A stretch of 64,000 nucleotides of DNA, from NCBI GenBank assembly GCA_041611735.1, contig JBFIML010000013.1, positions 12,188 to 76,187 on the forward strand. The letters run 5' to 3'. Shown piece by piece: positions 1 to 50,275 of this stretch (position 1 is the first letter of the stretch; each line of letters starts with the position of its first letter). The DNA is from Myxococcota bacterium. Its GTDB lineage: Bacteria > Myxococcota_A > UBA9160 > PR03. Under the pieces are notes generated by a model. The model did not search any database. It was not told the DNA's origin and saw only the letters and a program-made list of their open reading frames with translations. The position numbers were made by a program, and so were the translations under genes.

Positions 1-857
1 ACGAAGTTCTTCTGGCACACGAACTCCATGGGGCTGCCGGGGGGGCTGGCCGTCTGGGCGCCGTTGGCTCCGGACTTGTACTGGTACTTGGGGAAGCGGG
101 TGACGCCATCCTGGCCGAAGGGCAGGTTGGCCGGGTCGCGGCTCATGAAGTAGGTGTACGACTGGAAGAGCGACTCGCCGAGCGGCGACGCGCCGGAGCC
201 GGAGGAGTTCCCGACCGCGGCCTCCAGGTTCGAGGCGTGCCTCGGGGTGGGCTTGTCCACGGGGACCGTCACGAAGCCGCCGTTCGGATCCACGTTGCCC
301 GCGTCCGCCGGCTGGCGGAACTCGGCCAGGCCGAAGCTCACGCCCTTGGACTCGGCCTCGCAGATCACGTCCAGGAGCACCAGCTTGGCCGCCTGGGCCC
401 GGGTGCGCCGGTACTTGTCCCGGAGCTGGTTGGCCCCGCCGGCGGGGTTGCAGCCCTTGGGGATGGACTTGGCGGTCTTGATCTCGTTGTAGTAGGGGTC
501 CGCGGCCGAGCTGAAGTACCAGTTCAGGTAGCGGCCGGTCCAGAGCGTGGGGTTCTCGGGCCGCCAGATCGTGCGCGCCTTCCCACAGTGGGTCTCCGTC
601 TTCTGACTGGTGATCTCGTAGACGGTGTCGTCGTTCCACTTGTTGCAGAGCGCGGTGTAGCTCTGGCTGGGATCGAAGGCCGGGTGCCACTCGATCTCCT
701 TCATGGAGCGCGAGTTGTCGATGAAGAGCAGCACGTTGGGCGGCACCGAGGCGGTGAACAGGAAGAGGTCGGTGTCCGGATTGGACCCGGCCGGGACCGG
801 CAGCCCGAGGCCGACACCCAGAGCGAGTCCCAGGAGCGCCCGATGCGTTTGCTTCAC
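1..857 (-). CDS. pilY1: PilY1-like pilus tip adhesin, paralog 2 (N-terminal part; runs off the window)
   Basis: Not in the ORF track. Hand translation from GTG 857: MKQTHRALLGLALGVGLG...PPNVLLFIDNSRSM...RYLNWYFS...SPLGESLFQSYTYFM...RFPKYQY...CQKNFV. It has a signal peptide and a vWA MIDAS DxSxS, is colinear with the 3929-7459 protein and follows pilX. Confidence 0.9.
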   Translation of the reverse strand, partial: MKQTHRALLGLALGVGLGLPVPAGSNPDTDLFLFTASVPPNVLLFIDNSRSMKEIEWHPAFDPSQSYTALCNKWNDDTVYEITSQKTETHCGKARTIWRPENPTLWTGRYLNWYFSSAADPYYNEIKTAKSIPKGCNPAGGANQLRDKYRRTRAQAAKLVLLDVICEAESKGVSFGLAEFRQPADAGNVDPNGGFVTVPVDKPTPRHASNLEAAVGNSSGSGASPLGESLFQSYTYFMSRDPANLPFGQDGVTRFPKYQYKSGANGAQTASPPGSPMEFVCQKNF

Positions 858-905
858 GGTCAGATCTCCCCATCCCCTCCGGTGATCGATTCGCTCTCGC
901 CGCGC

Positions 906-1370
906 TCACTCGAGGCGGGCGGCGAGCACCTCCAGTCGCGCCGTGGACCCGGCGGGCTCCTGCCCCTGGACCCGCACCCGCCAGTAGTGCAGCTGGAAGG
1001 TCGGGCTCGCGTCCTGGCCCACGTTCATCTCGAAGCCCTCGATGGGGCTTCCGCCCAGATCGTCCAGCGGGTCGGCGGCCGTGGGATCGGGCTGGTAGCT
1101 GGGCCGGCCGTAGGGAAAGCTGCCCGGGTCCCCCACCGACTGGCCGTTGGTGACGGTGGGCGTGCCGGTGCGGGCCAGGTTTCCGAGCGCCTCGGCCACC
1201 CCCGCCTCGGCGGCGTAGAAGGCCATCCGTTCGCGCATCTGGTAGCCGGCCACCTGGCGCTCACGCGTCACGGTCTCCAGGGCTGCGAAGCCGACGGCGC
1301 CGATCAGCACCAGCATCATGACCGTGGCCAGCAGGGCCGAGCCCTCGATTCGTCGGGTCTGGATTCTCAC
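906..1370 (-). CDS. pilX: PilX-like minor pilin, copy 2
   Basis: EGSALLATVMMLVL hydrophobic N-terminus without Glu5, AFYAAEAGV PilX-type motif, located between pilW and pilY1. Confidence 0.85.
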   Translation of the reverse strand: MRIQTRRIEGSALLATVMMLVLIGAVGFAALETVTRERQVAGYQMRERMAFYAAEAGVAEALGNLARTGTPTVTNGQSVGDPGSFPYGRPSYQPDPTAADPLDDLGGSPIEGFEMNVGQDASPTFQLHYWRVRVQGQEPAGSTARLEVLAARLE

Positions 1371-2380
1371 AGGGTGGTCCCCCGGTTGCCCAGATTGCGC
1401 AGCTGGACCGTGGCCGTGTGCACGCGGCGGCGGAAGCCGTCGGCGCCCACCACGGGATCGCGGTTCTCCGTGTTCTGGAACAGACCCTGGCTATACTCCT
1501 GCCGCGGATCCGGGTCCCGGGTGCGCAGCGCCAGGTTGAAACGCACCTCGCGTAGCTCGCGCCCGTCGGCCCCGGCCGCCACGTAGTCGGGCCCCACGTT
1601 GTCCCCGCGGTACTCGCCGGGATCGATGGCCCCGTTCCCGTTGGCGTCGTAGAACCAGGCGAGCTGGAGGTCGTCCACGTCCTGGGCGAAGACCAGGCCG
1701 TCGCGCAGCAGCTGCCGCTGGGCGTCGACCCGGTAGTCGTGAGCCGGCACGGCCACGAGCTGGGGGGCGCCGCCGGCCGGTGCCAGGGGGCCGCTCACGA
1801 TGTTCACCTGCAGGCTGGTGGCGCTCGGGATCCCCACCACCGTCCCGCAGGCCGCCCCGCGCCCGGGGTCGCCCAGGTCGACGACGATCACGCCGCCGTT
1901 CACCCGGAAGTCGCTGTCGGCGACCCCGTCGCCATCCGTGTCGTAGGCGGGACGCCAGGTCGGGTTGGGCTCGATGACCAGCGAATCGACGTTCAGGGTC
2001 TGGACGCCGGTCACCACGTTGGCGGTCGCCACCGGGAGGCGGGCGCCGAAGTCGAGACCCTTGTCGTCGCCGGGATCGACGGCATCCGCGTCGCTCACGA
2101 ACAGGCGGTCGGGGCCGCCGTCCTGGTCGATGCCGCAGACCGCCGCCGCCTCCGACACCATGAGCCCCGCATGGCGGAGGTCGCGCTCCAGGAGATCGGC
2201 GATGGCGCGGCTGTTCTGCCGGACCTCCGACAGCTGGTCGACGACCACGTAGGTGCGCTGCTGGGTCGTGAAGGTCTGGGTGACGAGCACCATCACGATG
2301 CCGAGCACCGCCACCGCGACGAGCAGCTCCACCAGCGTGAAGCCGCCCTGCCCGCTGCGCCCGGCCCTCTCTGCCCCCAT
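1367..2380 (-). CDS. pilW: PilW-like minor pilin, copy 2
   Basis: Prepilin motif G|FTLVELLV, LERDLRHAG, C-terminal TATVQLRN; SD GGAGG upstream. Confidence 0.85.
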   Translation of the reverse strand: MGAERAGRSGQGGFTLVELLVAVAVLGIVMVLVTQTFTTQQRTYVVVDQLSEVRQNSRAIADLLERDLRHAGLMVSEAAAVCGIDQDGGPDRLFVSDADAVDPGDDKGLDFGARLPVATANVVTGVQTLNVDSLVIEPNPTWRPAYDTDGDGVADSDFRVNGGVIVVDLGDPGRGAACGTVVGIPSATSLQVNIVSGPLAPAGGAPQLVAVPAHDYRVDAQRQLLRDGLVFAQDVDDLQLAWFYDANGNGAIDPGEYRGDNVGPDYVAAGADGRELREVRFNLALRTRDPDPRQEYSQGLFQNTENRDPVVGADGFRRRVHTATVQLRNLGNRGTTL

Positions 2381-2427: not shown

Positions 2428-2443
2428 AGCAAGACCCGTGCCG
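2428..2443 (-). promoter_or_regulatory. sigma54 (-24/-12) promoter of the pilW2-pilX2-pilY1-2 module
   Basis: Minus strand CGGCAC-GGGTC-TTGCT (GG-N10-GC), about 48 nt upstream of the pilW2 ATG. Confidence 0.7.
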
Positions 2444-2451
2444 TGCTGTCC

Positions 2452-2479
2452 CGATCGGCAACCCAGCCGGGATCATTGA
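2452..2479 (-). promoter_or_regulatory. sigma28 (FliA)-type promoter motif upstream of pilW2
   Basis: Minus strand TCAAT-N15-GCCGATCG. Confidence 0.6.
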
Positions 2480-2570
2480 GCTTTTCCTGCCGGCGCCGGG
2501 CCGGGCCGGGGGCCCGGCTGCGCAGCGCCTTGCGCGCCGCGCAACCTGCTGCGTAGACCCGGTTCGAGGC

Positions 2571-3572
2571 TCAGTCGCGCAGGGCGGCCGGCGGGGCGGC
2601 GGTCGTCGGCTCGGGGGCCTGGACCACCAGCTCGAAGCGCTGGGCGGTGCCCCCACCGTGGGGATCCTCCACGGCGAGCTCGACCGTGTGGCGACCCGTC
2701 TGGTGCGAGGCGGGCTGCCAGACCAGCACGCCGGTGGCGGGATCCAGGGCCATGCCTCGGGGGCCCTCCAGCAGCCGGAAGCGGAGCGGTCGGTCCCCGT
2801 CCGGGTCCTCGGCCTGCACGGCGTAGCGGAAGCCGCCTCCCGGCCCGATGCCCTGGGGTGCGGAGCGGATCACCGGCGCCGCGTTGGTGAGCTCGAGCGG
2901 TGCGCTGCGTACGGGCCGGCTGTCCTCGGACCCGTCGCTCACCACGACCTCCACGAACACGCTGTCGCCGCGCCGCAGGCCCGCCGTGGAGAAGGTTGCC
3001 TGGCCTCGAGCGGCCTCGCGATCGTTCACGTACCAGACGTAGTCGAAGCGCAGATGGTCGCCGTCGGGATCGTCGGCCTCGACCCCTGCCGAGATCGGGA
3101 TTCCCGCCACGACGTTCAGCCGGGGCCGCAGGACCACCGAGCGCAGCGCGGGCCCCTGGTTGCCGATCCGCACCTCGGCGCTGCGCGGCTCCCCCTTGGC
3201 CTCTCCGTCTCCGGCGACGACCGTGACCCGCACCGCGTCGCCGCGGCGGGAGCGGTTGCCCGGGAACTCCGGCCCGCTGGCTTCCACCGGCCGTCCGTTG
3301 TGCTCCCAGCGGAACTCGAGATGCACCGGGTCGTGGTCCGGATCCTGGGCCCGGACCACCGCGCGCACCGGCTCGGCGGCGCGGGGCCGGGCCGGCCGCA
3401 GCTCCAGCGTCTCGATCACCGGGGCCTGGTTGACCCGGTCCTTGCCGCCCGCGGGCCGCGCGGACATGGGCGGGCCCGACGGCGTTCGAGTCGGCTCCTC
3501 GCCCCCACAGGCGGCGAGCGCCGTCGCCGCCAACATCGCCGCGGCGATCCGGTGGAGCTCCCCTCCTCGCAT
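2571..3572 (-). CDS. Lipoprotein with tandem Ig/cadherin-like repeats
   Basis: Lipobox ALAA|C, three N-x-[AG]-P...DPD[GH]D repeats, C-terminal putative Ig segment (GMALDPATGVLVWQP). Confidence 0.75.
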   Translation of the reverse strand: MRGGELHRIAAAMLAATALAACGGEEPTRTPSGPPMSARPAGGKDRVNQAPVIETLELRPARPRAAEPVRAVVRAQDPDHDPVHLEFRWEHNGRPVEASGPEFPGNRSRRGDAVRVTVVAGDGEAKGEPRSAEVRIGNQGPALRSVVLRPRLNVVAGIPISAGVEADDPDGDHLRFDYVWYVNDREAARGQATFSTAGLRRGDSVFVEVVVSDGSEDSRPVRSAPLELTNAAPVIRSAPQGIGPGGGFRYAVQAEDPDGDRPLRFRLLEGPRGMALDPATGVLVWQPASHQTGRHTVELAVEDPHGGGTAQRFELVVQAPEPTTAAPPAALRD

Positions 3573-3591
3573 GGTCCCTCCCGTGCGCCGC

Positions 3592-3915
3592 CTAGCGCGG
3601 CGCCTCCTCCAGGCGCAGCCGCTCGAGCTCGAGCCGCCCGCCCCGATCCACCGCCTCCCAGACGTACTGGAAATCCCCTCCCCAGGGATCCTGCACCCGC
3701 ACGTCCTGCAGCCCGATCCGCGCGCCGTCCAGGTCGGTGATCACGGTGCGCTCGGTCACGTGGTGCAGGCGCTTGTCGATGGTCACGGTGCGGGCGACCA
3801 CGTCCTTGGCAGTGAGCAGACCCGCGCCTTCCACGAGCTCGCCCGCCGACACCGCCCCCGCCAGACCGAGAGCGGCCGCCAGGGCCAGGACCGCACCTGC
3901 CCGGATGCCTCGCAT
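3592..3915 (-). CDS. Small secreted hypothetical protein
   Basis: Signal peptide ending AVSA; SD (AAGGAGG) upstream; directly downstream of pilY1. Confidence 0.65.
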   Translation of the reverse strand: MRGIRAGAVLALAAALGLAGAVSAGELVEGAGLLTAKDVVARTVTIDKRLHHVTERTVITDLDGARIGLQDVRVQDPWGGDFQYVWEAVDRGGRLELERLRLEEAPR

Positions 3916-3928
3916 GACTCGCCTCCTT

Positions 3929-6900
3929 CTACCGATCTCGCCAGCTCTCGAGCTGGATCAGCCGGGTTCCCAGGTCCGGAGCACACACCTGCTGCATTTC
4001 CCCGTCGCTCGTCACCACGATCACGCGGTTCTCGCAGGGCGGGCACGGCGGCGTGCCGCAGCCACCTCCACCGCCGCCCCCACCGCCCCCGGCGGCGCCG
4101 GAGAGCTGCCCCACCGAGACGCGGGGCGCACTGGGGAGCCCCACACCGATGCTCACACGACGGTCGGCTTCCGGATCCGTGGGACCGCTGCCGGGCTCGA
4201 ACAGCCCGCGACCGCAGAAGAGGTCGAAGCCGTACAGGAAGGCATCGCCCCCGGTCACGCACGGATCGCCCGAGCTGTCGGGAACGTAGGTGGGCGCCAG
4301 CACGAAGCCGGCGAAGATGGTCGCCTTCTGCACCATCTTCTCCCCGTCGCGCAGGCGGATGAAGAATCCGTTCTGCGAGGTCTGGGCCGCGCATCCCAGG
4401 GTGTTGCCGGTGAGATCGTTGAAGGTCGCGGCATCCCCCACCAGCGTGGTCGGAGTCGCGTCCAGCTCCAGGGGATCCGCATCCTTCATGACGTAGAAGC
4501 GGTTGTTCTCCTGGTTGGTCGTGGTCACTCCCGGGAAGCTCAGGTTGGCGCGCTCTCCGGTCCCCAGCGCGAGCCATAGCGTGCCGTGGATCAGCGCTCC
4601 CGTGGGGGGGAAGAACAGGCTCTTGTAGTAGGTCTGGCCACCGGTGGTGTGCTCCGGCGCCCGGAAGACCTTAAGGAAGGGCCAGCCCGGCTGCGCGACA
4701 TCGTGGGTCTCGCCGGGCGAGTGGTCGCCCACGTCGCGGACCACCCACTTCCACAGGTTCCCGCCCAGGTCTCCCACGTAGACCACGTCGACGAAGCCGT
4801 CGGAATTGAGGTCGAAGGCGGAAACCGAGGAGGGAATCGCGTACTTCAGGTCCCGCTGCGGGTCCCCGGCCGGCGCCGCCGGATCGAAGCGCTTGGCGGC
4901 CAGCACCCGTCCCGTGGCCAGATCGATCATGAAGACCGCCCGACCCGCCGTAGCGTTGGCCAGGTAGGACGGCGTATTCGGATCGCCGCTCGGGTCGTAG
5001 CCCCCGGTCACGATGGCCACCCAGCGCTCGAAGGGCTTGCCGGACGGGTCGTAGCTCCCTCCCACGCGCACCTTCACCCGCGTGATCACCGGCTCGGCCC
5101 AGGTCTCCCCGAAATACGGACGCCAGGCGTTGCACAAGGCGTCGCCGGGATTCTCACAGGGGAACTCCCAGAGGTACTTCGGGAAGGTCGAGGCCGTGTC
5201 GGGATCGGTCACGTCCAGCGCGAAGTAGGCGTTGCCGCCCTGGCGCAGCCCTCCCACCAGCACCGTGCGCCACTCGCCGGCGGACTTGTCCCAGTCCGTG
5301 CTCGTGGAGGGCAGCCAGGCATCCGCCGCCTGGGCGGCCCCGTCCACCCCATACCAGTGGGCCGTGGCCGGAAGCGGCAGGTTCTTCACCCGTTTGCGCA
5401 CCGGATACGGCATGAAGCCCATGCGCTCCTTGCCGGCCTCCGCGTGCTCCCGGTTGTAGCGGGCCGGCGAGAGGGTCGTGTCCCACACCTCGCCCACGAA
5501 GCCATGCAGGAAGCCGCCGTTCGAGCCCGCGTACACCATCTTGGTCCGCGTGGCCCAGGTCTGGGCGAAGCTCAGGTACGAGCTGTCGTTGATGGCCGCG
5601 TTGGGAGGCCCGATCACGAGCGGGTTCGAGTGGAAGATGTCCGCCAGCCGGATGCTCCGGTCCACGCAGGGATCCGAGCCGAACTCGCAGCCGCGCCCGT
5701 ACTGCACCACCTCGTCGGCCAGCTCTCCGGCGTTGGACGCCGTGCTGCCCAGGGGCACGTACGGCGGCAGGTCGCCGGCCGTGAGGACGAGGTCCACCTC
5801 GTCGAGGCCCACCCGGTCGAAGACCGGCGGGCGGCTGCCCTGGGCCACCCCCGTCTTCGAGACGTAGAGCTTGCGACTTCCGGCGCTCGGCATCTTGTCC
5901 TGGGCGTCCCAGATGGGCACCAGCAGGTCCAGGGGCTTCAGGTCTCCCCCGTCGCAGGGGGTCGGGTCGCCCGCGAAGACACACAGCCCGTTCTTGTCGC
6001 GCACCTCGCCGTCCGCCTCGATGTCGAAGTTGACCAGGTGCCCCTCCCAGAAGGGCGAGCTGTTCTTGGGCCGGAAGTTGGTGAAGTAGAAGTTGTTCTC
6101 CGCCGTGGTGCGGCTGGCGGGCACCGACACCGCGGTGAAGGACTGCACCTTGTCGATGATGTCCCGGATGGAGTCGATGATGGCCTGGGTCAGCTCCTCG
6201 GCGTTGTTGCTGGTGAAGAAGAGCCCGCCTCCCACCGCCGCGGTCTTGGCCAGCAGGGCGTTTGCCGTCCCCGAGGTGGTGAAGCCGACCGTGTAGATGT
6301 CCAGGTTCTGGAAACCGCTGCGGTTGGGCATGAAGTCGTTTTCGTGCATGAACTTGGCGATGTCGTCGAGGTAGCCAGCCCCCTCCGACGGCCAGGGCGG
6401 ATTGCCCTCCTCGGTCTCGCCGTCCAGGTTGTAGTCGCCGATCAGCTTGTTCTTGAAATCCTTGAAGCCCTTGGCGGTGCTGGTCGGGGATTCCTCGTCG
6501 AAGTCGTCCCGGGTCGGCTCCCCGTCGGTGATGACGATGACGAAGTGCTTCTGGCAGTCGTAGAGGACCGGGGTGTCCGGCACGGTGGGGGGCCCCGAGT
6601 TGCTCTGGGGCCCGTTCAACGTCGTGCGGTACTGGTACTTGGGGAAGCGCGTGCTGGCGTCCTTGCCCTTGGGGCGGTCCCCGTCGTCGCGGTCCATGAA
6701 GTAGGTGTAGACCTGGAAGAGCGTCTCCCCGAGCGGCGTCCAGGTGTCCGGGTCGAGGTTCTGGATGGCGGTGTTCAGGGCCAGGTCCTGGGCCGGCGTG
6801 TAGTCGTCAGCCGGCACCACCACGTAGCCGCCATTGGGGTCGCCACCCTCCCGGAACTGGGCCAAACCGAAGCGCACGTCGCCGGCGGCGTTCACCTGGC

Positions 6901-7459
6901 AGATCACGTCGCGCAGGATGTGACGCATGGCCGAGGCCCGGGAGCGCCGGTAGCGGTGGTAGCTCCCGCCGCCCAGGCAGGCCGAGAAGGTGCCGTTGTT
7001 CATGGCCACGATGGTGGGATACACGGGGTTGGAGGCGGGACTGTACAGCCAGTTCAGGTAGCGGCCGTCCCAGCGGGTGCGATCGCCGTTCACGAAGATC
7101 TCCGGGTCGTGGAACACCTCCCGCGCGGTCGAGACGCAGCCCGCCGGAACCGGCGCCGGGATCGCGTGGGTCATGGGCGGAAAGAGGGTGTCGTTGGGCC
7201 CGCTGAACCCGCTGGAGCCCGGGTCGACGTAGTAGGTCCAGCCGTCGTTCCAGTAGGTGCAGCTCGGCACGAGCGTCGGATCGAAGCTCTCGTGCCAGAC
7301 CACGTGCTCCATGGAGCCGGAGTTGTCGGCCAGGAACACCACGTTCGGCGCCACCACGTTGGAGAAGAGCTCCGTGTCGTCGGCGCGCGGAGTCGCACCG
7401 GGCGCGAGGAGGGACAGGCCCAGGAGGGCGATGACCCCGGGCAGGTGAAGGCGGGTCAT
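3929..7459 (-). CDS. pilY1: PilY1 pilus tip adhesin (vWA + beta-propeller), paralog 1
   Basis: Start MTRLHLPG with SD GGAGG; MIDAS DNSGS and ITDGE; YAGSNGGFLHGF and YFALDVTDP propeller motifs; Ca-binding loop DLNSDGFVD; poly-Gly near the C-terminus. Confidence 0.92.
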   Translation of the reverse strand: MTRLHLPGVIALLGLSLLAPGATPRADDTELFSNVVAPNVVFLADNSGSMEHVVWHESFDPTLVPSCTYWNDGWTYYVDPGSSGFSGPNDTLFPPMTHAIPAPVPAGCVSTAREVFHDPEIFVNGDRTRWDGRYLNWLYSPASNPVYPTIVAMNNGTFSACLGGGSYHRYRRSRASAMRHILRDVICQVNAAGDVRFGLAQFREGGDPNGGYVVVPADDYTPAQDLALNTAIQNLDPDTWTPLGETLFQVYTYFMDRDDGDRPKGKDASTRFPKYQYRTTLNGPQSNSGPPTVPDTPVLYDCQKHFVIVITDGEPTRDDFDEESPTSTAKGFKDFKNKLIGDYNLDGETEEGNPPWPSEGAGYLDDIAKFMHENDFMPNRSGFQNLDIYTVGFTTSGTANALLAKTAAVGGGLFFTSNNAEELTQAIIDSIRDIIDKVQSFTAVSVPASRTTAENNFYFTNFRPKNSSPFWEGHLVNFDIEADGEVRDKNGLCVFAGDPTPCDGGDLKPLDLLVPIWDAQDKMPSAGSRKLYVSKTGVAQGSRPPVFDRVGLDEVDLVLTAGDLPPYVPLGSTASNAGELADEVVQYGRGCEFGSDPCVDRSIRLADIFHSNPLVIGPPNAAINDSSYLSFAQTWATRTKMVYAGSNGGFLHGFVGEVWDTTLSPARYNREHAEAGKERMGFMPYPVRKRVKNLPLPATAHWYGVDGAAQAADAWLPSTSTDWDKSAGEWRTVLVGGLRQGGNAYFALDVTDPDTASTFPKYLWEFPCENPGDALCNAWRPYFGETWAEPVITRVKVRVGGSYDPSGKPFERWVAIVTGGYDPSGDPNTPSYLANATAGRAVFMIDLATGRVLAAKRFDPAAPAGDPQRDLKYAIPSSVSAFDLNSDGFVDVVYVGDLGGNLWKWVVRDVGDHSPGETHDVAQPGWPFLKVFRAPEHTTGGQTYYKSLFFPPTGALIHGTLWLALGTGERANLSFPGVTTTNQENNRFYVMKDADPLELDATPTTLVGDAATFNDLTGNTLGCAAQTSQNGFFIRLRDGEKMVQKATIFAGFVLAPTYVPDSSGDPCVTGGDAFLYGFDLFCGRGLFEPGSGPTDPEADRRVSIGVGLPSAPRVSVGQLSGAAGGGGGGGGGGCGTPPCPPCENRVIVVTSDGEMQQVCAPDLGTRLIQLESWRDR

Positions 7460-7511
7460 GGCAGGAACCTCCGGATTCGGAGTCGGGGAGCCATCGCCGG
7501 GGCCACGACGG

Positions 7512-8045
7512 TCAGCTCCCGGTGTACGGACGACACACGCTGGCCGTGGCCTGGATCGGCCGCGCGAGATTGTCGGGGGTGGTGCCCTGGACGCGGATCT
7601 GCCAGAGCGACTTCCTCCAGACCACCTTGTCCTCGAGGGCCGTGATGAAGTCGCAGTTGGCACCGCTACCCAGGTAGTCGATGGCGTCCGCCACGGCCGG
7701 GTCCCGGCCGAAGCTCGGCTGGCCGTAGGGCCAGGAGCCCGCCTCGCCCACGGCGGTGGCGCCCGCCGGGAAGGGCGGGTTGTAGGCATCGAGGGCCGCT
7801 GCGCCCTCCAGGGCGTGGATGCTGTCCAGGTCGTTGAGGAGCGAGGCCAGGGCGGTGGACACTCCCGCCTCGCCGGCATCCAGGGCCACCCGGGCCCGGG
7901 TCTGGTAGCCCGCCACCTGACGGTCGGCGGTGACCGTCTCCAGGGCGGCGAAGCCGATGAAGGCCATCAGGACGAGCATCATCACGGTCACGAAGAGCGC
8001 GGAGCCCTCGCGGCCCCGGGTGCGTAGCGGCGCGGACGGGTCCAT
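7512..8045 (-). CDS. pilX: PilX-like minor pilin, copy 1
   Basis: ATG overlaps the pilW stop (TGATG); EGSALFVTVMMLVL...AGEAGV; paralog of 906-1370. Confidence 0.85.
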   Translation of the reverse strand: MDPSAPLRTRGREGSALFVTVMMLVLMAFIGFAALETVTADRQVAGYQTRARVALDAGEAGVSTALASLLNDLDSIHALEGAAALDAYNPPFPAGATAVGEAGSWPYGQPSFGRDPAVADAIDYLGSGANCDFITALEDKVVWRKSLWQIRVQGTTPDNLARPIQATASVCRPYTGS

Positions 8046-9031
8046 CAGCTGTTCCCCACGTTGCGGACCCGCACCGTGGCGGTGTGGGTCCGGCGGTGGA
8101 AGCGGTCTGGAACCGCAGCTCCGAGCGCGCGGTTCTCGAAGGCCTGGGGCAGCCCCTGCACGTACTCCTGGCGGGGATCCGGGTCCCGGCTCACCGCCAC
8201 CAGGTTGAAGCGCACCTCGCGCAGGTTCTGGCCGTTGGCCAGGGACGGGTCGTAGGTGGCGGTGTCGACGCCACCGGCGGCGTCCACGCCGTCGCCGTAC
8301 ATCTCGTCGGGGCCCAGATTGCGGTCGTCGTCGTCGTCGAAGAAGTAGGCGACCTGGAGGTCCTCGATGTCCTGCGCCAGGGCCATCCCGTCGCGCTGCA
8401 GCTGCGGGGTGGCGCCGCCCGGGGCATTGACCTGGTAGACGTGGGCCGGGATGGCCACCACGTCGGGGTTGGCGCCCACGGGTCCGATCTGGGTGCCGTT
8501 CCAGTCCACGCTGAGGGTGTTGCCCGCCAGGGCCGTGACCACGCCGCAGGCCACCCGGGCGTCGGGATCGTTGCGGTCCAGCACGATCACGCCCGCGTTG
8601 GCGGCGAAGTCCGGTCCGTCCGCGGCCACGTCGAGCCAGTTGCGGCTCAGGGTGATGGCGGCCCCATGGACCCAGCCCGGCCCCACGCCGCTCACCGGGG
8701 CGCCCAGGTTGCCGGCCGCCTCGTCCACCGGGAGCTGGTCCACGGTGCGCAGCACGTCCGTGTTGCTGACGAACAGCGTGTCGGGCCCGTTGGTGCGGTC
8801 CCAGCCGCACACCGCCGCCGCCTCGGGCACCAGGTACCCGGCCAGGCGCAGGTCCCGCTCGATCAGGTCCGCCACGATGCGGACGGTCTGCTGCGCCTCC
8901 ACGGTCTGGTCCACGATGGCGTAGGTGCGCTGCTGGGTGGTGAAGGTGCCCAGCAACCCGGCCACGACGAGGCCGAGGATCCCGACCACGATCAGGAGCT
9001 CGACGAGGGTGAATCCTGCCGTGCGACGCAT
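8045..9031 (-). CDS. pilW: PilW-like minor pilin, copy 1
   Basis: MRRTAG|FTLVELLIV, IERDLRLAGY; paralog of 1367-2380. Confidence 0.88.
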   Translation of the reverse strand: MRRTAGFTLVELLIVVGILGLVVAGLLGTFTTQQRTYAIVDQTVEAQQTVRIVADLIERDLRLAGYLVPEAAAVCGWDRTNGPDTLFVSNTDVLRTVDQLPVDEAAGNLGAPVSGVGPGWVHGAAITLSRNWLDVAADGPDFAANAGVIVLDRNDPDARVACGVVTALAGNTLSVDWNGTQIGPVGANPDVVAIPAHVYQVNAPGGATPQLQRDGMALAQDIEDLQVAYFFDDDDDRNLGPDEMYGDGVDAAGGVDTATYDPSLANGQNLREVRFNLVAVSRDPDPRQEYVQGLPQAFENRALGAAVPDRFHRRTHTATVRVRNVGNS

Positions 9032-9036
9032 GGCGG

Positions 9037-9525
9037 CTACCAGTTGAAGCGTGCGCTCGAGAGCGTCACGGTGGGCAGGCTCGTCCGTGTCGGCTTCGCG
9101 TTGGGGCGGTTGACCTCCGTCCACGTCACCTCCACGTCCACGTTGAGCAGGTTCGGATCGGCGGTGGCGGCGACGCGCCAGGCCACGTTGTAGGTCTGCC
9201 CGGCCACCGGGGCGCCGGCGGGGACCTGGGGCTGCACGGTGATCTGACCGCCCGGCACCCAGGGCGGCACCTGCCAGCCCGCACCGGCTGCCGCATTGAC
9301 GGTCGCCCAGGGCATGCGCTGGATCTGCTCCATCTGGGCCCGGGCGAGACGGCTCGCGTCGCTCACGTGTTGTCCCATGGAGCCGTCGCGCAGGGCCTGG
9401 ATCTGGAGCGCGGCGAGCGAGAGCAGCCCGAAGGCGAGCACCGCCAGGGCGATCATGATCTCGATCAGGGTGAAGCCGTCGCCGCGAGGCCGACGGCGAA
9501 GCAGGACGGTGGTCAGTTCAGCCAT
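9037..9525 (-). CDS. pilV: PilV-like minor pilin
   Basis: G|FTLIEIMIALAVLAFGLLSLAALQ motif; located between fimU and pilW. Confidence 0.88.
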   Translation of the reverse strand: MAELTTVLLRRRPRGDGFTLIEIMIALAVLAFGLLSLAALQIQALRDGSMGQHVSDASRLARAQMEQIQRMPWATVNAAAGAGWQVPPWVPGGQITVQPQVPAGAPVAGQTYNVAWRVAATADPNLLNVDVEVTWTEVNRPNAKPTRTSLPTVTLSSARFNW

Positions 9526-10196
9526 TGGCCCGAAGCCCCCTGGGTCGCGTCGAACGGGTGGACGCGGGTGGCTCCCAGCGGAGAGAGCACCACCGCGTAG
9601 TCCCGGTTGGTGTTGGTCACGTACACGCCGCCGGCCCCGGAGCCGACCCCGGCCGTGACGAAGGGCGCCACGGAGAAGGCGCGCGGGATGCCGTCCGGCA
9701 GGAAGACGACCCACTGGGCCGGGTTGTTGGCGGGATCCACGAAGGTGAAGCCGCCGAAGCCGGCGCCGCAGCAGAGCCCGAGGGGATCGGGGTCCGTGGC
9801 CGGGGGGCCCGTGACGGCGGCCTGGGTGCTGCCCCAGTTGAGCGTCCCGGTCGGGTCCGCCAGCACCGTCACCCGGTTCTCGCCGGGATCGGCCAGTCCG
9901 TTGCCGTTGGTGTCCTGCACCATCAGGGCGGCGAGCCGGTTGCCGGCGCCGTCCAGCAGCGGATTGCCCGCCGGATCGAGCCAGAAGAACACCGGGTGAT
10001 TGACGCGGGTGCGGATCGCCTCGGCGCGCGCGAGCTGCATCAGATCGGCCATGGAGCGGGTGGCGGCCCGCACGCGCAGGTCGCGCTGCCAGCGCTGGAA
10101 GCGCGGCACGGTCAGGGCCGAGAGCACCCCGATGATCGCCACCGCGACCATGAGCTCGATCATGCTGAAGCCCGCTCGTCCCCGAGCCGCACGCAT
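9513..10196 (-). CDS. fimU: FimU/FimT (GspH-like) minor pilin
   Basis: G|FSMIELMV, ARAEAIR motif; first gene of the minor-pilin operon; SD GGAGGT. Confidence 0.85.
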   Translation of the reverse strand: MRAARGRAGFSMIELMVAVAIIGVLSALTVPRFQRWQRDLRVRAATRSMADLMQLARAEAIRTRVNHPVFFWLDPAGNPLLDGAGNRLAALMVQDTNGNGLADPGENRVTVLADPTGTLNWGSTQAAVTGPPATDPDPLGLCCGAGFGGFTFVDPANNPAQWVVFLPDGIPRAFSVAPFVTAGVGSGAGGVYVTNTNRDYAVVLSPLGATRVHPFDATQGASGQWLN

Positions 10197-10233
10197 CGGA
10201 ACCTCCCCGGGCGCCTCGCCCGCCGGCCTGGAC

Positions 10234-10249
10234 AGCAAGCCGTGTGCCA
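10234..10249 (-). promoter_or_regulatory. sigma54 promoter of the fimU-pilVWX-pilY1 operon
   Basis: Minus strand TGGCAC-ACGGC-TTGCT, a consensus -24/-12 element 38 nt upstream of fimU. Confidence 0.85.
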
Positions 10250-10257
10250 GTGATCCG

Positions 10258-10285
10258 TTTTCGGCCAAGTCCCCGTTTCGCTTGA
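10258..10285 (-). promoter_or_regulatory. sigma28-type promoter motif upstream of fimU
   Basis: Minus strand TCAAG-N15-GCCGAAAA. Confidence 0.6.
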
Positions 10286-10357
10286 GGATTCGATGGATGC
10301 GCCGACTCCGTCGCTGCGCAGTGCGCTGCGGGGTCCGCAGGCGGCTGCGGGGCTCCC

Positions 10358-11845
10358 CTAGGGCCGCGCCTGGGCGGGCGTCGGGAGGACGGCGGGCAGC
10401 CGCAGGGCGAAGGCGGTGCGCGCCCCGGCCGGGGGCGGCGCCAGCTCGAGCCGGCCTCCGAGCTCCTCGGCCAGGCGCTGGGAGGTGGCCAGGCCCAGGC
10501 CGGTGCCCTCCCCGGGCGCCTTGCTGGTGAAGAAGGGGTCGAAGATGCGCTCGCGATCCTCCTCCGGGATGCCACAGCCGTGGTCGGCCACCAGGCACTC
10601 CACGGCGTCCGGGACCCGCCGGCCCGCCGCCGCCTCCGCGCCCTCTCCATCCCGCACGTCCAGGACCGCCGGGCGCACCCGGATCTCCACCCGCGGGTCG
10701 TCGGCGTCGCGCACCGCATCGGCGGCGTTCAGCGCCAGGTTGAGCAGGATCTGGGACACCGCGCCCGGGTCCCCGCGCACGCTCGGGAGGGCGCCTTCCT
10801 GGCGGACCTGGAAGCGCACCTTCCCGTAGCGGCGCTGGGCTTCGACCAGCGCCACGGTCTCCTCGGCCAGGGCGCGAAGATCCAGGGCCACGGCGGCGGC
10901 GCGGCGCGGAGGCCGGGAGAACTCGAGCAGCTGGCGCAGGATGCGCCGCACGCGCTCCCCCTGCTGGGCGGCCCGGGCCAGGTGCTCACGCGTTTCCGGC
11001 GCGCAGGCCGGATCGCGGCGCGCCAGATCGAGGAAGGCGAGCTGTGCGGCCACCGGGTTGCCCACCTCGTGGGCGACTCCCGCGGCGAGCCGGCCCACGG
11101 CAGCCAGGCGCTCCGCACGGGCCAGGCCGGCCCGGGCATGGCGGAGGCTGCGGTTCGCCTCGCGCAGCTCCGCCACCACCTTCTCGAGCGCCCCGGTGCG
11201 TCGCTCGAGAGCCGCGGTCATCTGGTTGAACGCGGTGGCCACCTCCGCCGCCTCGCGAGGCCCCTCCACCGGCACCCGGTTCGCGAGCTCCCCATCGGCC
11301 ACGGCCCCGGCCGCTTCGGCCAGGCGGCGGAGCGGGAGTACCACGCGACGTCGCAGCAGCGAGACCCCGAAGGCCGTGAAGATCGCCACGTCCACCAGCA
11401 GCACGATGGCCGCCGCGCCGAGGGGCGCCGCGCGCAGGCGCAGGGAGGCAGAGCGCGGCAGCCGCGCCACTGCCACCACGCCGTCGGGCTCCGCGGGAGC
11501 CCCGAAGCGAATCTCCTCCCAGGGGGCACCGGGTTGCAGCAGCGGCATGCGCCGCTCGCGCACGCTCGACGCCAGGGCGCGGGTCCTGGCATCGAGGCTG
11601 TCCGGGTCCGCGCCGGCCGGCTCCACGGAGCCGTCGGCCCGCAGGCGCCACCAGCGCGTCCCGGGGAGCAGCATGGGCTCCGGCTGGGGCGCCTGGAGCG
11701 CCTCGGCCAGCAGCGCCCGCCCCAGGACGTCGCGCAGGCGAGCCTCCCCGTGGCGGAGCAGCACTCCGGCGAGCACCGCCGTGGCCGCCAGCATGACCAG
11801 GGCCAGGCTCAGGATCACCTCGGCCTGCAGGCCGCTGCGCCGCAC
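10358..11845 (-). CDS. Membrane HAMP sensor histidine kinase (no dedicated response regulator adjacent)
   Basis: Two TM helices, HAMP (LPLRRL...AFNQM), H-box AHEVGNP, G-boxes DHGCG and GTGLGL; GTG start chosen just after the pilR stop. Confidence 0.85.
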
Positions 11846-11853
11846 GCTCGCGT

Positions 11854-14954
<3,101 letters not shown>

Positions 14955-14968
14955 GCCGGCCTCGGGGC

Positions 14969-16180
14969 CTAGCCCACCGTCTCTGCGATCTTGAAGATCG
15001 GCAGGTACATGGCGATCAGGATCGCGCCGATCGTGCCGCCCAGGAACACCATGAGCAGCGGCTCCAGCAGCGAGGTGAGTGCGGCCACCGCCTGATCCAC
15101 CTCGTCCTCGTAGAAGTCGGCGATCTTGCCGAGCATGGCGTCCATGGCCCCGGTCTGCTCACCCACGGTGATCATCTGGACCACCATGCCCGGGAACACC
15201 TTCGCCGCGGAGAGCGGCTCGGCGATCGTCTTGCCCTCCGAGATGCCGGTCCGGGTGTCCCGGAGACCGGCCTCGATCACCTTGTTGCCGGCCGTCCTGG
15301 CGCAGATCTCGAGGGCATCGAGGATCGGGACGCCGCTGGCGAGCATGGTGCCGAAAGTGCGGCTGAAGCGGGCCACCGCGACCTTCTTGAGCAGCGGCCC
15401 GAAGATCGGCAGTCGCAGGGCGATGGCATCGGTCCGGAAACGGAAGCGCGGCAGCCGCTTGCGGGCCTGGGAGAAGGCCACCCAGGCCAGCACGCTCACC
15501 ACGAGGAACGACACGATGTGGGCCTGCAGGAAGTGGCTGATGCCGATCACCATCTGGGTCGGGCCCGGCAGCACACCGCCGAAGTCGCGGAACATCTTCT
15601 CGAAGACCGGGATCACCTTCACCAGCAGCAGGGTGATCACCGCGATCGAGACCACGACCACCGCGATCGGGTAGACCATCGCGCTCTTCACCTTGCGCCG
15701 GAGAGCGTCGGCCTTCTCCAGATACGTGCCGAGGCGGTTCAGGATCGTGTCCAGGATGCCGCCCACCTCGCCGGCCGCGACCAGGTTCACGTACAGCTCG
15801 TCGAAGGCCTTGGGATGCTTGCCCAGGGCGTCCGCGAAGGTGGATCCCTGCTCCACGTCCGCCTTGACCCGGTTCAGCACGTTCTGGAACACCTTCTTCG
15901 GCTGCTGATCCGCCAGGATCTCCAGGCATTGGACGAGCGGCAGGCCCGCGTCGATCATCGTCGCGAACTGGCGAGTGAACGTCACCAGGTCTCGCGTCGC
16001 GATCCTGCCCTGGAAGAGCGTGATGCCCTCCAGCAGATCCTTCGGCTTGGTCTTCACCGCCATGGGCACGATCATCTGGGTTCGCAGCTGCGCCATCACG
16101 GCGGCCTCGCTGACGGCCTCCATGACCCCCTTCTTGATCGATCCCTGGCGGGTACGGCCTTCCCAGGCGTAGACGGGCAT
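14969..16180 (-). CDS. pilC: Type IV pilus platform protein PilC
   Basis: FTRQFATMIDAGLPL, GEVGGILD, MYLPIF. Confidence 0.96.
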   Translation of the reverse strand: MPVYAWEGRTRQGSIKKGVMEAVSEAAVMAQLRTQMIVPMAVKTKPKDLLEGITLFQGRIATRDLVTFTRQFATMIDAGLPLVQCLEILADQQPKKVFQNVLNRVKADVEQGSTFADALGKHPKAFDELYVNLVAAGEVGGILDTILNRLGTYLEKADALRRKVKSAMVYPIAVVVVSIAVITLLLVKVIPVFEKMFRDFGGVLPGPTQMVIGISHFLQAHIVSFLVVSVLAWVAFSQARKRLPRFRFRTDAIALRLPIFGPLLKKVAVARFSRTFGTMLASGVPILDALEICARTAGNKVIEAGLRDTRTGISEGKTIAEPLSAAKVFPGMVVQMITVGEQTGAMDAMLGKIADFYEDEVDQAVAALTSLLEPLLMVFLGGTIGAILIAMYLPIFKIAETVG

Positions 16181-16229: not shown

Positions 16230-17333
16230 TCATCGCATCCGGCCAGTCCGCCGCATCGCGGGCGGCGCGCTCCCGCCCCCGATCAGGCTGCGCAGCTCGT
16301 CGAGATCGGGGCTCCGGGCGTGCGCATCGTCCAGCGAGATCATCTTTCGCTGATAGAGGCTGGCCAGGGACTGGTTCAGCGTCTGCATGCCGAACTTGTC
16401 CTGCCCCACCTGCATCTGCGAGTACATCTGATGGATCTTGTCCTCGCGGATCAGGTTGCGGATCGCCGCGTTCGGGACCATGAGCTCCACCGCCATGGCA
16501 CGCCCGGGCCCGTTGGCCCGCGGGATCAAGGTCTGGCACAGGACGCCCTCCAGCACGAAGGAGAGCTGCGCTCGGACCTGACCCTGCTGGTAGGGCGGAA
16601 ACACGTCCACGATGCGGTTGATGGTCTGCACCGCCGAATTGGTGTGCAGCGTCGCGAGGCACAGGTGCCCGGTCTCCGAGACCGTGAGGGCCGCCTCGAT
16701 GGTCTCCAGATCCCGCAGCTCGCCCACCAGGACCACGTCCGGATCCTGGCGCAGGATGTACTTCAGGGCGGTGGCGAAGTTCTTGGTGTCCGCGCCCACC
16801 TCGCGCTGGTTGACCAGACACGCCTTGTGCGGGTGGAGGTACTCGATCGGGTCCTCGATCGTGACGATGTGCTCCTTGCGCTCGCTGTTGATGCGGTCGA
16901 TCATGCTGGCGAGCGTGGTGGACTTTCCGGACCCGGTGGGGCCCGTGACCAGGATCAGCCCGCGCGGCTTCTTGGTGAGTTCCGAGACCACCTTGGGAAG
17001 CCCCAGTTCGTCCAGGCTCATGATCTTGTAGGGGATGGCCCGGAAGGCCCCGGCCACCGCACCCCGCTGCATGAAGATGTTGGCCCGGAAGCGCGACAGA
17101 CCACGCACGCCGAACGACAGGTCGAGCTCGCTGTTCTCCTCGAACTTGTGCTTCTGGGCGTCGGTCAAGATCGAGTAGCAGAGCTGCTTGGTCTCCGGCG
17201 GCCCGAGCGGCGCCATCTGCATGGGCATGAGCTTGCCGTCCACCCGGAACTGGGGCGGACTGTTGGTGGTGACGTGCAGGTCGCTCGCCCCCTTCTCGAT
17301 CATCGACTTCAAGAGCTGGTGAAGGTTGGCCAT
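16230..17333 (-). CDS. pilT: Type IV pilus retraction ATPase PilT
   Basis: GPTGSGKST, LRQDPD, AIRNLIRE. Confidence 0.97.
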   Translation of the reverse strand: MANLHQLLKSMIEKGASDLHVTTNSPPQFRVDGKLMPMQMAPLGPPETKQLCYSILTDAQKHKFEENSELDLSFGVRGLSRFRANIFMQRGAVAGAFRAIPYKIMSLDELGLPKVVSELTKKPRGLILVTGPTGSGKSTTLASMIDRINSERKEHIVTIEDPIEYLHPHKACLVNQREVGADTKNFATALKYILRQDPDVVLVGELRDLETIEAALTVSETGHLCLATLHTNSAVQTINRIVDVFPPYQQGQVRAQLSFVLEGVLCQTLIPRANGPGRAMAVELMVPNAAIRNLIREDKIHQMYSQMQVGQDKFGMQTLNQSLASLYQRKMISLDDAHARSPDLDELRSLIGGGSAPPAMRRTGRMR

Positions 17334-17346
17334 GCTTGCTCCGCTC

Positions 17347-19047
<1,701 letters not shown>

Positions 19048-41750: not shown

Positions 41751-42065
41751 CTAGAGCCGGCCCTCCAGGTAGCCCTCGATCAGCTCGATGAGGCCGGTGT
41801 CCACTCCGTCGAAGCACAGACCCACCAGGCCGCGCTGCGGATCGCTCCACGCGACCACCGCCTCCAGGGCCAGCGGCAGGGAGATGCCGGGCAGGGCGAA
41901 CTCGCTGGTGACCGGCGTCCGCGTCGGGGGCAGCGGCGAAGTCATGCTCACGCTCATGCCCCCGGCGGAGAGGTCGCGGCCCGAGGCCAGCTTCCTGCGC
42001 CCTCGAGTGGTGATCTCCACCCAGCCTTCGAACGAGGCTCGGGATCGCCCTCGGCGCTCCTGCAT
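41751..42065 (-). CDS. Stand-alone PilZ domain protein
   Basis: ERRGRSR (RxxxR) and DLSAGG (DxSxxG) c-di-GMP-binding motifs; SD GGAGG. Confidence 0.88.
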   Translation of the reverse strand: MQERRGRSRASFEGWVEITTRGRRKLASGRDLSAGGMSVSMTSPLPPTRTPVTSEFALPGISLPLALEAVVAWSDPQRGLVGLCFDGVDTGLIELIEGYLEGRL

Positions 42066-46686: not shown

Positions 46687-46715
46687 TTGAAGCGCGCTCG
46701 CCCGCTGCGTACACT
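46687..46715 (+). promoter_or_regulatory. sigma70-type promoter of the FleQ-like activator
   Basis: TTGAAG-N17-TACACT. Confidence 0.7.
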
Positions 46716-46752
46716 TGGGTTGCCCCCCCTCCGTAGTCGCGGAGGTATCCCG

Positions 46753-48147
<1,395 letters not shown>

Positions 48148-48218: not shown

Positions 48219-48406
48219 CTTTCGCCGGCGGCTGATTGGGCCCGCCGCCCCGGGCGGCACTCGACCTGCGCAAGAGCCTGCACTCCGGCCACGCCGCCCG
48301 GAAGCGGGAAAGCGGAACCGGCACCCGGGGTTGCGCCGCTGGGGAGGCGCCGGCCGCCGTCCGCCTGCGCGCTCCCGGACCGCGCGGCCCGTTTCGAACC
48401 CGAACT

Positions 48407-48422
48407 TGGCACGCGCCGTGCT
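48407..48422 (+). promoter_or_regulatory. sigma54 promoter of fliA
   Basis: TGGCAC-GCGCC-GTGCT (GG-N10-GC), about 92 nt upstream of the ATG. Confidence 0.7.
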
Positions 48423-48513
48423 TTGCTGCGCAGCCTGCGCGCAACCCGGTGCGCTCGGGAGCGGCACGAAGCTGCGGATGCGTCGCTCGTCAACCGTCCA
48501 GGAGGAGGACTGC

Positions 48514-49278
48514 ATGGAGCAGATGCTCCGCGATGCCAAGGAGAGATACTCGGAGATTCCCGCGTCGCTCAAGGAGCAGATCGTGCTCGAGCACGCCCCC
48601 CTGATCCGCTACATCGTGAACCGCATTGCCGTCCGTCTGCCTTCCCACATCGATCTCGACGACCTGCACAACACCGGCGTGATCGGCCTGATGGACGCGA
48701 TCGAGAAGTACGATCCGGAGAAGAACTGCAAGTTCAAGACCTACGCCGAGTTCCGCATCAAGGGAGCGATCCTCGACCAGCTGCGCTCGCTGGACTGGGT
48801 GCCGCGCAGCGTGCGCCAGAAGGGTCGCCGGCTGGAGCGGGCCTACGGCGAGGTGGAGCAGCGCCTCGGGCGCTCGGCCACGGAGGAGGAGGTGGCCGAC
48901 TCCCTGGGGCTGCAGATCGAGAAGTTCCACGAGCTGCTCAACCAGGTCCGCGGCGTCTCCCTGGTGAACCTGGAGGAGCTGCGGGGCACCGGGCCCGACG
49001 GAGAGCGCACCGGCGGCTACGCGGACATCGTGGAGGACGTGCACTCCGAGAACCCGTTCTCCGCCCTCAAGCTCTCCGAGACCAAGCGCCTGATCGGCGA
49101 CACGATCGCGAGCCTGCCCGAGAAGGAGCGGCTGGTGATCTCCTTCTACTACCACGAGGACCTGAACATGAAGGAGATCGGGTCGATCCTGGGCATCACG
49201 GAGTCGCGCGTGTGCCAGATCCACACGAAGGCGGTGCTGCGGCTGCGTGCCAAGCTGAAGGCCCTGCTGGAGCGGTAG
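48514..49278 (+). CDS. fliA: RNA polymerase sigma factor, FliA/WhiG (sigma28) family
   Basis: FKTYAEFRIKGAILDQLRSLDWVPRSVR, KEIGSILGITESRVCQIH; SD GGAGGAGG. Confidence 0.95.
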   Translation: MEQMLRDAKERYSEIPASLKEQIVLEHAPLIRYIVNRIAVRLPSHIDLDDLHNTGVIGLMDAIEKYDPEKNCKFKTYAEFRIKGAILDQLRSLDWVPRSVRQKGRRLERAYGEVEQRLGRSATEEEVADSLGLQIEKFHELLNQVRGVSLVNLEELRGTGPDGERTGGYADIVEDVHSENPFSALKLSETKRLIGDTIASLPEKERLVISFYYHEDLNMKEIGSILGITESRVCQIHTKAVLRLRAKLKALLER

Positions 49279-49471: not shown

Positions 49472-50203
49472 TCAGTCCGTCTTCTCGCAGCGCACCAGGA
49501 CGACCGTGATGTTGTCCTCGCCGCCGCGCTCGTTGGCGAGGGCGATCAGTCCGTCCGCGGCCGTCTGGAGATCCCCCTCCCCGGCCAGCGCCGCGGCGAT
49601 CTCCTCGTCGCGCACGTGGTTGGTGAGGCCGTCGGAGCAGAGCACGAAGACGTCGTCGGGAGCCAGGGTGAGCTCCGCCAGGTCCGGCTCCGCGTTGGGC
49701 CGCACGCCGAGGGCCCGGGTGAGCACGTGGCGGTGCGGGTGCTCCCGGGCTGCATCCGGGCTGATCTCGCGGCGGCGCACCAGCTCCGCCACGATGGAGT
49801 GATCGTCCGTGAGCTGCCGCAGCCGCCCCCCACGCTGCAGGTAGGCCCGGCTGTCCCCCACGTGGGCCAGCGCCGCCCGCCCCTCGTCCAGCAGCAGGGC
49901 CACGAGCGTGGTTCCCATGCCGGCGAGCTCCGCGTGGTCGTGGGCGGTCTGGAAGATCTGGCGGTTGGCGGCGGCCACGGCGTAGCGGAGCTTCTCGGCG
50001 AGGCTCGCGGAGGCACCCGCCAGGGTGCTCACGGCCCGCAGGGCCTCCTCCGCGGCCAGCCGGCTGGCCAGCTGGCCGGCCGTGTGGCCTCCCATGCCGT
50101 CGGCCACCAGGAACAGGCCGAACTCGGGGGCCAGGGCGTAGCGGTCCTCGTTGGTGGAGCGCCGCCGCCCGACGTCTGATCCGGCCGTCGCCCGCAGGAT
50201 CAA
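49472..50203 (-). CDS. PP2C-family Ser/Thr phosphatase (Stp1/Pph1-like)
   Basis: DVGRRRSTNED, VADGMGG, MGTT, HVGDSR, CSDGL, GGEDN; TTG start behind GAGAGGGGG. Confidence 0.95.
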   Translation of the reverse strand: MILRATAGSDVGRRRSTNEDRYALAPEFGLFLVADGMGGHTAGQLASRLAAEEALRAVSTLAGASASLAEKLRYAVAAANRQIFQTAHDHAELAGMGTTLVALLLDEGRAALAHVGDSRAYLQRGGRLRQLTDDHSIVAELVRRREISPDAAREHPHRHVLTRALGVRPNAEPDLAELTLAPDDVFVLCSDGLTNHVRDEEIAAALAGEGDLQTAADGLIALANERGGEDNITVVLVRCEKTD

Positions 50204-50275
50204 CGAAAAGCCCCCTCTCGCGCTCCGCAGGCCGGGCACGCAAGCCCCCGCCTCCCGGCCCGGACCGCCACGGTT

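Follow-up and report, generated by a model that had tools for sequence, protein, structure and literature searches.

Nested sigma-28- and sigma-54-type promoter elements with conserved spacing precede two pilus-tip operons in a Myxococcota genome

The main type IV pilus locus of an uncultured Myxococcota bacterium (GTDB lineage Myxococcota_A; UBA9160; PR03) lies on the minus strand of the 64,000-nucleotide (nt) stretch analysed here, hereafter the window (assembly GCA_041611735.1, contig JBFIML010000013.1, positions 12,188 to 76,187). It includes two modules of minor-pilin and PilY1-like genes, A and B, which are paralogous (PilW2 from module A and PilW from module B share 49% identity), and each module is preceded by a composite of a sigma-28-type promoter element followed by a sigma-54 (-24/-12) element. 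We refer to the composite before pilW2 as site A and to that before fimU as site B; all coordinates are collected in Table 1. The names fimU and pilW2, given to the first genes of the modules in a preliminary description of this DNA, are reasonable, the two products combining N_methyl with GspH and PilW domains, respectively.

Read on the minus strand, the composite has the layout TCAAK-N15-GCCGAnnn-N9-GGCAC-N5-TTGCT at both sites, from 10285 to 10234 before the FimU/GspH-like open reading frame (ORF; ATG at 10196) and from 2479 to 2428 before the PilW-like ORF (ATG at 2380). The GG and GC of both sigma-54 elements are 10 nt apart, as TGGCAC-N5-TTGCW requires; at site B the N9 stretch ends in the T (10249) of TGGCAC, and at site A this first base is c. 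The preliminary description had claimed the same layout at both tip modules, with spacers that differ, and our analysis upholds both points: only 4/15, 1/9, and 2/5 positions of the three variable stretches are identical between the sites (counted by hand), and the genome-wide pattern search that it proposed, when run, returned exactly two matches on both strands of the whole 4.09 Mb genome (72% G+C). With at most one mismatch allowed, the window contains two matches, versus none in 100 dinucleotide-preserving shuffles. That description has to be corrected in that the feature belongs to the minus strand, and supplemented by a further conserved element, a tandem palindrome, upstream of both sites. 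The composite is real as a sequence feature, and a chance origin at sites A and B is excluded.

The sigma-28-type half of the composite matches a motif that is spacing-specific across the genome. For TCAA[GT]-Nk-GCCGA[TA] there are 39 matches with k = 15 versus 0 to 12 with each other k from 8 to 24, and for TAAA[GT]-Nk-GCCGA[TA] eight with k = 15 versus none or one with other k from 11 to 19, a total of 47 sites of the form T[AC]AA[GT]-N15-GCCGA[TA]. This motif equals the sigma-28 family consensus T(A/C)AA-N16-GCCGA given in PMC12871210, and sites A and B both fit its -35 (T(A/C)AA) and -10 (GCCGA) elements with the 16-nt separation. A Pfam survey of the 36 ORFs that follow the remaining TCAA-type sites, a few of which look intragenic, found signalling proteins (four PilZ, two response regulator-PAS-GGDEF-EAL, one EAL, one response regulator-GGDEF, and two MCP-type chemoreceptors) together with two further pilin-like proteins, one MshEN-domain protein, one bactofilin, two glycosyltransferases, one sigma-70-family protein, and others, seven ORFs being without a family. 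A perfect TAAAG-N15-GCCGATAA also precedes pilB of the pilB-pilT-pilC genes (19201-19174, minus strand). Judged by these predicted targets, this is a FliA regulon of the motility and cyclic di-GMP (c-di-GMP) type in a genome without detectable flagellar genes.

Several other sigma-28-type sites have features of their own. Upstream of pilB, the LPG_synthase_TM gene ends in a TAA stop codon that is also part of the -10 element before pilB. TCAAG-N15-GCCGAAAC at 13482-13509 (minus strand) falls within the PilS-like gene, at its 3' end and approximately 230 nt before the probable start of the PilR-like gene. It could be an internal promoter that sets up a feed-forward loop, or it could match by chance within a coding region. 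Outside the window, a site on the minus strand (G000 C62:3750) precedes a DEAD-box helicase gene and is followed 14 nt later by TGGAC-N5-TTGCA; we did not count it as a composite because its sigma-54-like part has the wrong internal spacing. Two further sites outside the window, G000 C63:60 and C107:3944 (both plus strand), are identical in promoter and flank, the C63 copy lying before a 557-aa sigma-70-family gene, and probably represent a single locus that is split or repeated where the contigs end.

Of the 121 genomes sampled from the order, 116 have FimU homologues, and upstream regions were fetched via the protein, not via the motif (30 + 58 loci, 88 in all and 65 after duplicate removal). 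Both elements were found in 32 of these 65 unique regions, the sigma-54 element only in 17, the sigma-28 element only in six, and neither in ten, corresponding to a sigma-54 element in 49/65 and a sigma-28 element in 38/65 regions; shuffled regions gave a mean of 0.25/65 with any sigma-28-like match. In 31 of the 32 two-element regions, CCGA lies 15 nt (23 regions), 14 nt (7 regions), or 13 nt (1 region) from the T of TGGCAC. A relaxed pattern with fixed spacing had 30 matches in 27 of the 121 order genomes, representing 8 of 12 families, versus none for a reversed-pattern control. These two results support the earlier proposal that the geometry is under selection. The motifs have been kept while the spacers were randomised, across proteins that are just 36-50% identical, and the distance from promoter to ATG ranges from 25 to 134 nt among the FimU regions.

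The relaxed pattern is unevenly distributed among families, being found in 0/24 genomes of one (f10) and 1/24 of another (f12). In a phylum-wide sample it occurred in 4/33 genomes of the order and in 1/168 outside it, the latter match (L190) being compositionally different in appearance. Two genomes of another family have a second copy of the composite before a PilY1-like gene (L147 and L162); by tblastn the second PilY1-like protein of the window shares 52% identity with the L147 protein, whereas L162 is only a weak match. A third genome (L148) has the composite before a VWA/PilY1-like gene. The composite thus accompanies tip-complex genes irrespective of which gene comes first, and in other genera (L147 and L148) it stands before modules that begin with PilY1. 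No orthologue of module A was found in the rest of the family, where 12 of 16 genomes had a PilW match, each a single PilW within the fimU operon. Being kept in many related genomes, the composite arrangement is very probably functional.

The conserved tandem palindromes upstream of both sites have the form CGCAR-N4-YTGCG, and those of site B directly follow the HAMP kinase gene's stop codon. Their centres are 74.5 and 94.5 nt upstream of the -24 T at site B and 84.5 and 103.5 nt upstream at site A, whose palindromes are 10 nt farther from the sigma-54 element; this placement fits the distance of about 80-150 nt from the start that is typical of activator sites at sigma-54 promoters. With a palindrome called where at least 9 of 10 positions match (genome background 0.36 per kb), at least one was present in 46 of the 48 FimU upstream regions that have a sigma-54 element and enough sequence, and two in 31/48, spaced centre to centre by 19 nt (25 regions), 20 nt (three), or 21 nt (three). 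In the 31 two-element loci of conserved spacing, the enhancer lies between 69.5 and 104.5 nt from the sigma-54 element, at distances that cluster at intervals of about 10 nt, and all of this variation falls upstream of the sigma-28 -35 element, none of it between the sigma-28 and sigma-54 elements. The palindromes are most likely the enhancer of the adjacent PilR-like activator, for which they are our candidate; an imperfect CAAG-N11-CTTG had been considered as the main enhancer and was dropped once this conserved pair was found farther upstream. No sigma-28 element was seen upstream of the other sigma-54 promoters of the genome.

Both sigma factors are encoded in the assembly, which is 95% complete: rpoN was detected at 212.6 bits, and fliA, of the FliA/WhiG family, lies in the window itself. 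FlhA, flagellin, and FlgM had no family match in the genome, FlgM having been sought with one family search. Across the order FliA scored above the cut-off in 107/121 genomes and FlhA was found in just 20/61, which indicates repeated loss of flagella with fliA retained. The composite, searched with a strict pattern, was present in 3/20 FlhA-positive versus 17/41 FlhA-negative genomes, a raw trend among related genomes to which no test was applied. Three of the first 30 fimU loci come from genomes without a fliA match, two with a sigma-54 element only (L033 and L035) and one with the composite (L025), and all three assemblies are incomplete. Among ten flagellin-like genes of five FlhA-positive relatives, three have a sigma-28-like motif and six a sigma-54 promoter.

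A sigma-54-like TGGCAC-N5-GTGCT is found at 48407-48422 (plus strand), 93 nt before the likely fliA start codon, and a gene for a response regulator of the sigma-54 activator type (46687-48147) lies directly upstream of fliA. This combination suggests a cascade from sigma-54 via fliA to sigma-28, as in polar flagellates. A PP2C/SpoIIE-type phosphatase gene (49472-50239, minus strand) and a response regulator gene flank fliA, and the distance from fliA to fimU is 36-41 kb in many genomes of the order that have both on one contig. Several of the flagellin loci examined in the relatives (L178-L188, from genomes G003, G020, G022, G027, and G052) have long leaders with hairpins presenting AAGGA, which we take to be reminiscent of CsrA-controlled flagellin leaders.

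From the two motifs, their conserved spacing, the sigma-factor genes, the sigma-28 regulon, and the enhancer-like palindromes, we infer the use of both start sites, their mutual exclusion, and which activator binds. We think it probable that the region upstream of each tip module is a three-layer control region, comprising palindromes, a sigma-28 promoter, and a sigma-54 promoter, in which both promoters are used and occupied in a mutually exclusive manner. The palindrome pair, farthest upstream, would be the enhancer on which the PilR-like sigma-54 activator encoded nearby acts, and a canonical -24/-12 promoter would lie nearest the gene. The FliA-dependent promoter would be lodged between the two, its -10 element ending 9 nt before GGCAC, and both promoters are probably used. 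On the start-site offsets that we assume for the two sigma factors, sigma-28 transcription would start on or just before the T/GG within the -24 element, at a point about 26-28 nt upstream of where sigma-54 transcription begins, so that the two holoenzymes, given the footprint sizes that we take them to have, would be unable to occupy the DNA together. An unactivated sigma-54 closed complex would exclude the sigma-28 holoenzyme, activation by the PilR-like protein would fire the sigma-54 promoter, and sigma-28 transcription would proceed only with the sigma-54 site free.

The preliminary description had cast this overlap as a logic gate, and occlusion of sigma-28 by a sigma-54 closed complex is plausible by analogy with known promoters; the alternative that it raised, a hand-over from the sigma-54 complex to sigma-28 transcription, finds no support in our data. 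Only tentatively do we go further and propose that the 9-nt offset exists for a dedicated sigma-54 gate on the sigma-28 promoter, forming an order-wide competition switch between two sigma factors that would time pilus-tip synthesis, integrate a PilS/PilR-type signal with FliA activity, and have been retained, or perhaps even favoured, once the flagellum had repeatedly been lost.

Several observations weigh against the proposed three-layer region with competing promoters. The pairing is not obligatory and either promoter can stand alone, as the 17 sigma-54-only and six sigma-28-only regions indicate, and the related genomes compared are non-independent samples. We aligned 45 fimU-type promoters on the sigma-54 element, numbering positions relative to TGGCAC, and GCCGA was only 49-73% conserved per column across all 45 sequences. 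The same alignment revealed conserved positions that general sigma-28 sites do not have, namely AA at -40/-39 (82% and 67%), C at -26 (91%), and TT at -19/-18 (82% and 87%). The C at -26 and the TTG at -19 to -17 persist in sigma-54-only orthologues that have neither TCAAG nor CCGA, and the palindromes are absent from five of the six sigma-28-only orthologues; together these patterns assign the extra positions to the sigma-54 side. They may mark the site of a bending protein, and a third factor may fix the spacing in place of the interplay between sigma-28 and sigma-54.

The explanation that best survives as an alternative to the three-layer region with competing promoters is that of two independent promoters providing an OR input with no interplay, placed close together because the intergenic region is short, with the spacing frozen by the need of sigma-54 for upstream elements such as an enhancer or bending site. 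The single-element orthologues fit this scenario, as do the C at -26 and the TTG, which fall inside the sigma-28 spacer and persist where the sigma-28 motif is missing, and the clustering of enhancer distances at intervals of about 10 nt, suggestive of helical phasing. We nevertheless consider it rather unlikely, given that length changes of 10-20 nt always fall upstream of the sigma-28 -35 element and that starts about 27 nt apart make co-occupancy physically unlikely on the footprints assumed above, so that some competition would follow even without selection for it.

An improbable alternative is that the upstream element merely resembles a sigma-28 motif and is the site of another DNA-binding protein, either an IHF-like bender or a dimeric regulator binding the imperfect CAAG-N11-CTTG. 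It would account for the extra conserved positions foreign to other sigma-28 sites and for a location which, as we understand it, is that of IHF sites in many sigma-54 promoters; at site B, moreover, CAAG and CTTG are symmetric about the conserved C at -26. This symmetry decays to CTAG or TTAG in many orthologues, however. By eye, the IHF consensus WATCAANNNNTTR is matched just at CAA (opposite the TTG at -19 to -17) and at R (opposite the C at -26). Both sites fit the two halves of the genome-wide motif in full, with its strict N15 spacer; TCAAG and CCGA are kept in orthologues, one of which (L042) has the canonical TAAAG; the near absence of palindromes from sigma-28-only orthologues also speaks against the site of another protein; and in two loci (L018 and L026) a distance of 54-56 nt separates the motif from the predicted start, which is where a promoter would be expected. 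Chance resemblance, or a functionless relic of the duplication that the paralogy of the modules would allow, is effectively refuted by the comparative data, the shuffles and reversed controls having no matches and the motifs having been kept while the spacers were randomised.

Parts of the proposed three-layer arrangement are already known from other systems: overlaps of sigma-54 with sigma-70 promoters, control of pili and c-di-GMP by FliA-family factors in the absence of flagella, and control of pili by PilR and sigma-54. Promoters of the sigma-54 and sigma-70 types that overlap have been described for qrr2 of Vibrio parahaemolyticus, where inactive sigma-54 is proposed, with mutant data, to block the other sigma factor, and the same source cites a like overlap at glmY of Escherichia coli (10.1101/2021.07.01.450815). 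In the arrangement described here the promoter of a second sigma factor likewise overlaps a sigma-54 promoter and the overlap is conserved in relatives. In contrast to those cases as they are presented there, the partner is sigma-28 and not the housekeeping sigma factor, the starts are offset by about 27 nt and not superimposed, the genes are pilus-tip operons, and the system is known from sequence alone.

The WhiG sigma-28 family of non-flagellated Actinomycetota has predicted or confirmed targets among type IV pilus genes, c-di-GMP enzymes, and chemotaxis genes (PMC12871210). It resembles the present case in the retention of a FliA-type sigma factor without flagella and in the identical consensus, and differs in belonging to another phylum and, as described in that source, in lacking sigma-54, so that no nested promoter can exist there.

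In Pseudomonas aeruginosa, PilS-PilR and sigma-54 control type IV pilus genes. In Xanthomonas oryzae, sigma-54-dependent pilus genes and an NtrC-type PilR have been described for the RpoN2-PilRX system (PMC7170775). Here too an NtrC-type PilR adjoins PilS and pilus genes have sigma-54 promoters. The main known target of those systems is the major pilin, whereas here the minor-pilin/PilY1 operons are concerned, with a palindromic enhancer and an embedded sigma-28 promoter. Sigma-54 and then sigma-28 act in the four-tier flagellar hierarchies of Vibrio, Pseudomonas, and Campylobacter. A hierarchy model with these two sigma factors is also given in PMC7170775. The present genome likewise appears to combine both sigma factors in a single motility programme; fliA appears to have a sigma-54-like promoter and an activator gene upstream, and in flagellated relatives the flagellin genes are preceded by sigma-54 or sigma-28 motifs. 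Unlike the flagellar hierarchies, in which the two sigma factors act on separate gene classes, both would act here on one compact pilus promoter in a genome that gave no match to FlhA or flagellin.

A limited literature search, which is no proof of absence, found no order-conserved sigma-28 promoter nested at a fixed offset in an activator-dependent sigma-54 promoter of minor-pilin/PilY1 operons. If the arrangement operates as proposed, it would be a natural and compact case of two alternative sigma factors acting on one promoter with fixed geometry, in which sigma competition or occlusion is directly testable on approximately 150 bp of DNA. In this little-known group the flagellar sigma factor appears, after loss of the flagellum, to run a regulon of pilus, c-di-GMP, and chemoreceptor genes that parallels that of actinobacterial WhiG. 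The palindromes would also supply a candidate enhancer motif through which a PilR-like activator may control minor-pilin/PilY1 operons, the regulation of which is poorly known outside Pseudomonas.

Table 1. Coordinates of the composite sites, the genes of the pilus locus, and fliA in the window.
Feature	Coordinates	Strand	Details
Site B sigma-28-type promoter	10258..10285	-	TCAAG (10285-10281), N15, GCCGAAAA (10265-10258); matches the genome's spacing-specific motif and the published consensus
Site B sigma-54 promoter, -24/-12 type	10234..10249	-	TGGCAC-N5-TTGCT; GGCAC 10248-10244, TTGCT 10238-10234
Site A sigma-28-type promoter	2452..2479	-	TCAAT (2479-2475), N15, GCCGATCG (2459-2452)
Site A sigma-54 promoter	2428..2443	-	cGGCAC-N5-TTGCT; GGCAC 2442-2438, TTGCT 2432-2428
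Site B tandem palindromes	10314..10352 (10352-10335, 10333-10314)	-	CCCCGCAG-N4-CTGCGG + CCCCGCAG-N4-CTGCGCAG
Site A tandem palindromes	2518..2553 (2553-2540, 2534-2518)	-	CGCAG-N4-TTGCG + CGCAA-N4-CTGCGCAG
Extra conserved positions	10266-10290 and 2460-2484	-	AA -40/-39, C -26, TT(G) -19..-17; loci L013-L097
pilB	17347-19047	-
pilT	16230-17333	-
pilC	14969-16180	-
PilS-like kinase	13236-14954	-	6TM_PilS; part of the regulator block 10358..14954 upstream of site B
PilR-like response regulator	11854-13671 (ORF)	-	domains: sigma-54 activator, HTH_8; second gene upstream of fimU
HAMP histidine kinase	10358-12190 (ORF)	-	adjoins site B upstream
fimU-like minor pilin	9513..10196	-	N_methyl + GspH; first gene of module B
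Module B pilV-like	9037-9540	-	module B remainder spans 2571..9540
Module B pilW	8045-9124	-
Module B PilY1-like	3929-7879	-	1316 aa; VWA + PilY1 propeller
Module B small ORF	3592-3915	-
Module B Ig-domain protein	2571-3572	-
Module A pilW2	1367-2380	-	N_methyl + PilW; module A spans 1..2380
Module A pilX	906-1370	-
Module A second PilY1-like gene	from 857/909, past window start	-
fliA (sigma-28, FliA/WhiG family)	48331..49278	+	TIGR02479, 274.7 bits versus cut-off 189.6; likely start ATG 48515

The window also contains genes for a stand-alone PilZ protein (41751-42065, minus strand) and a GAF-GAF-GGDEF protein (61380-63863, plus strand), which add further c-di-GMP functions to the neighbourhood of the pilus and fliA loci.

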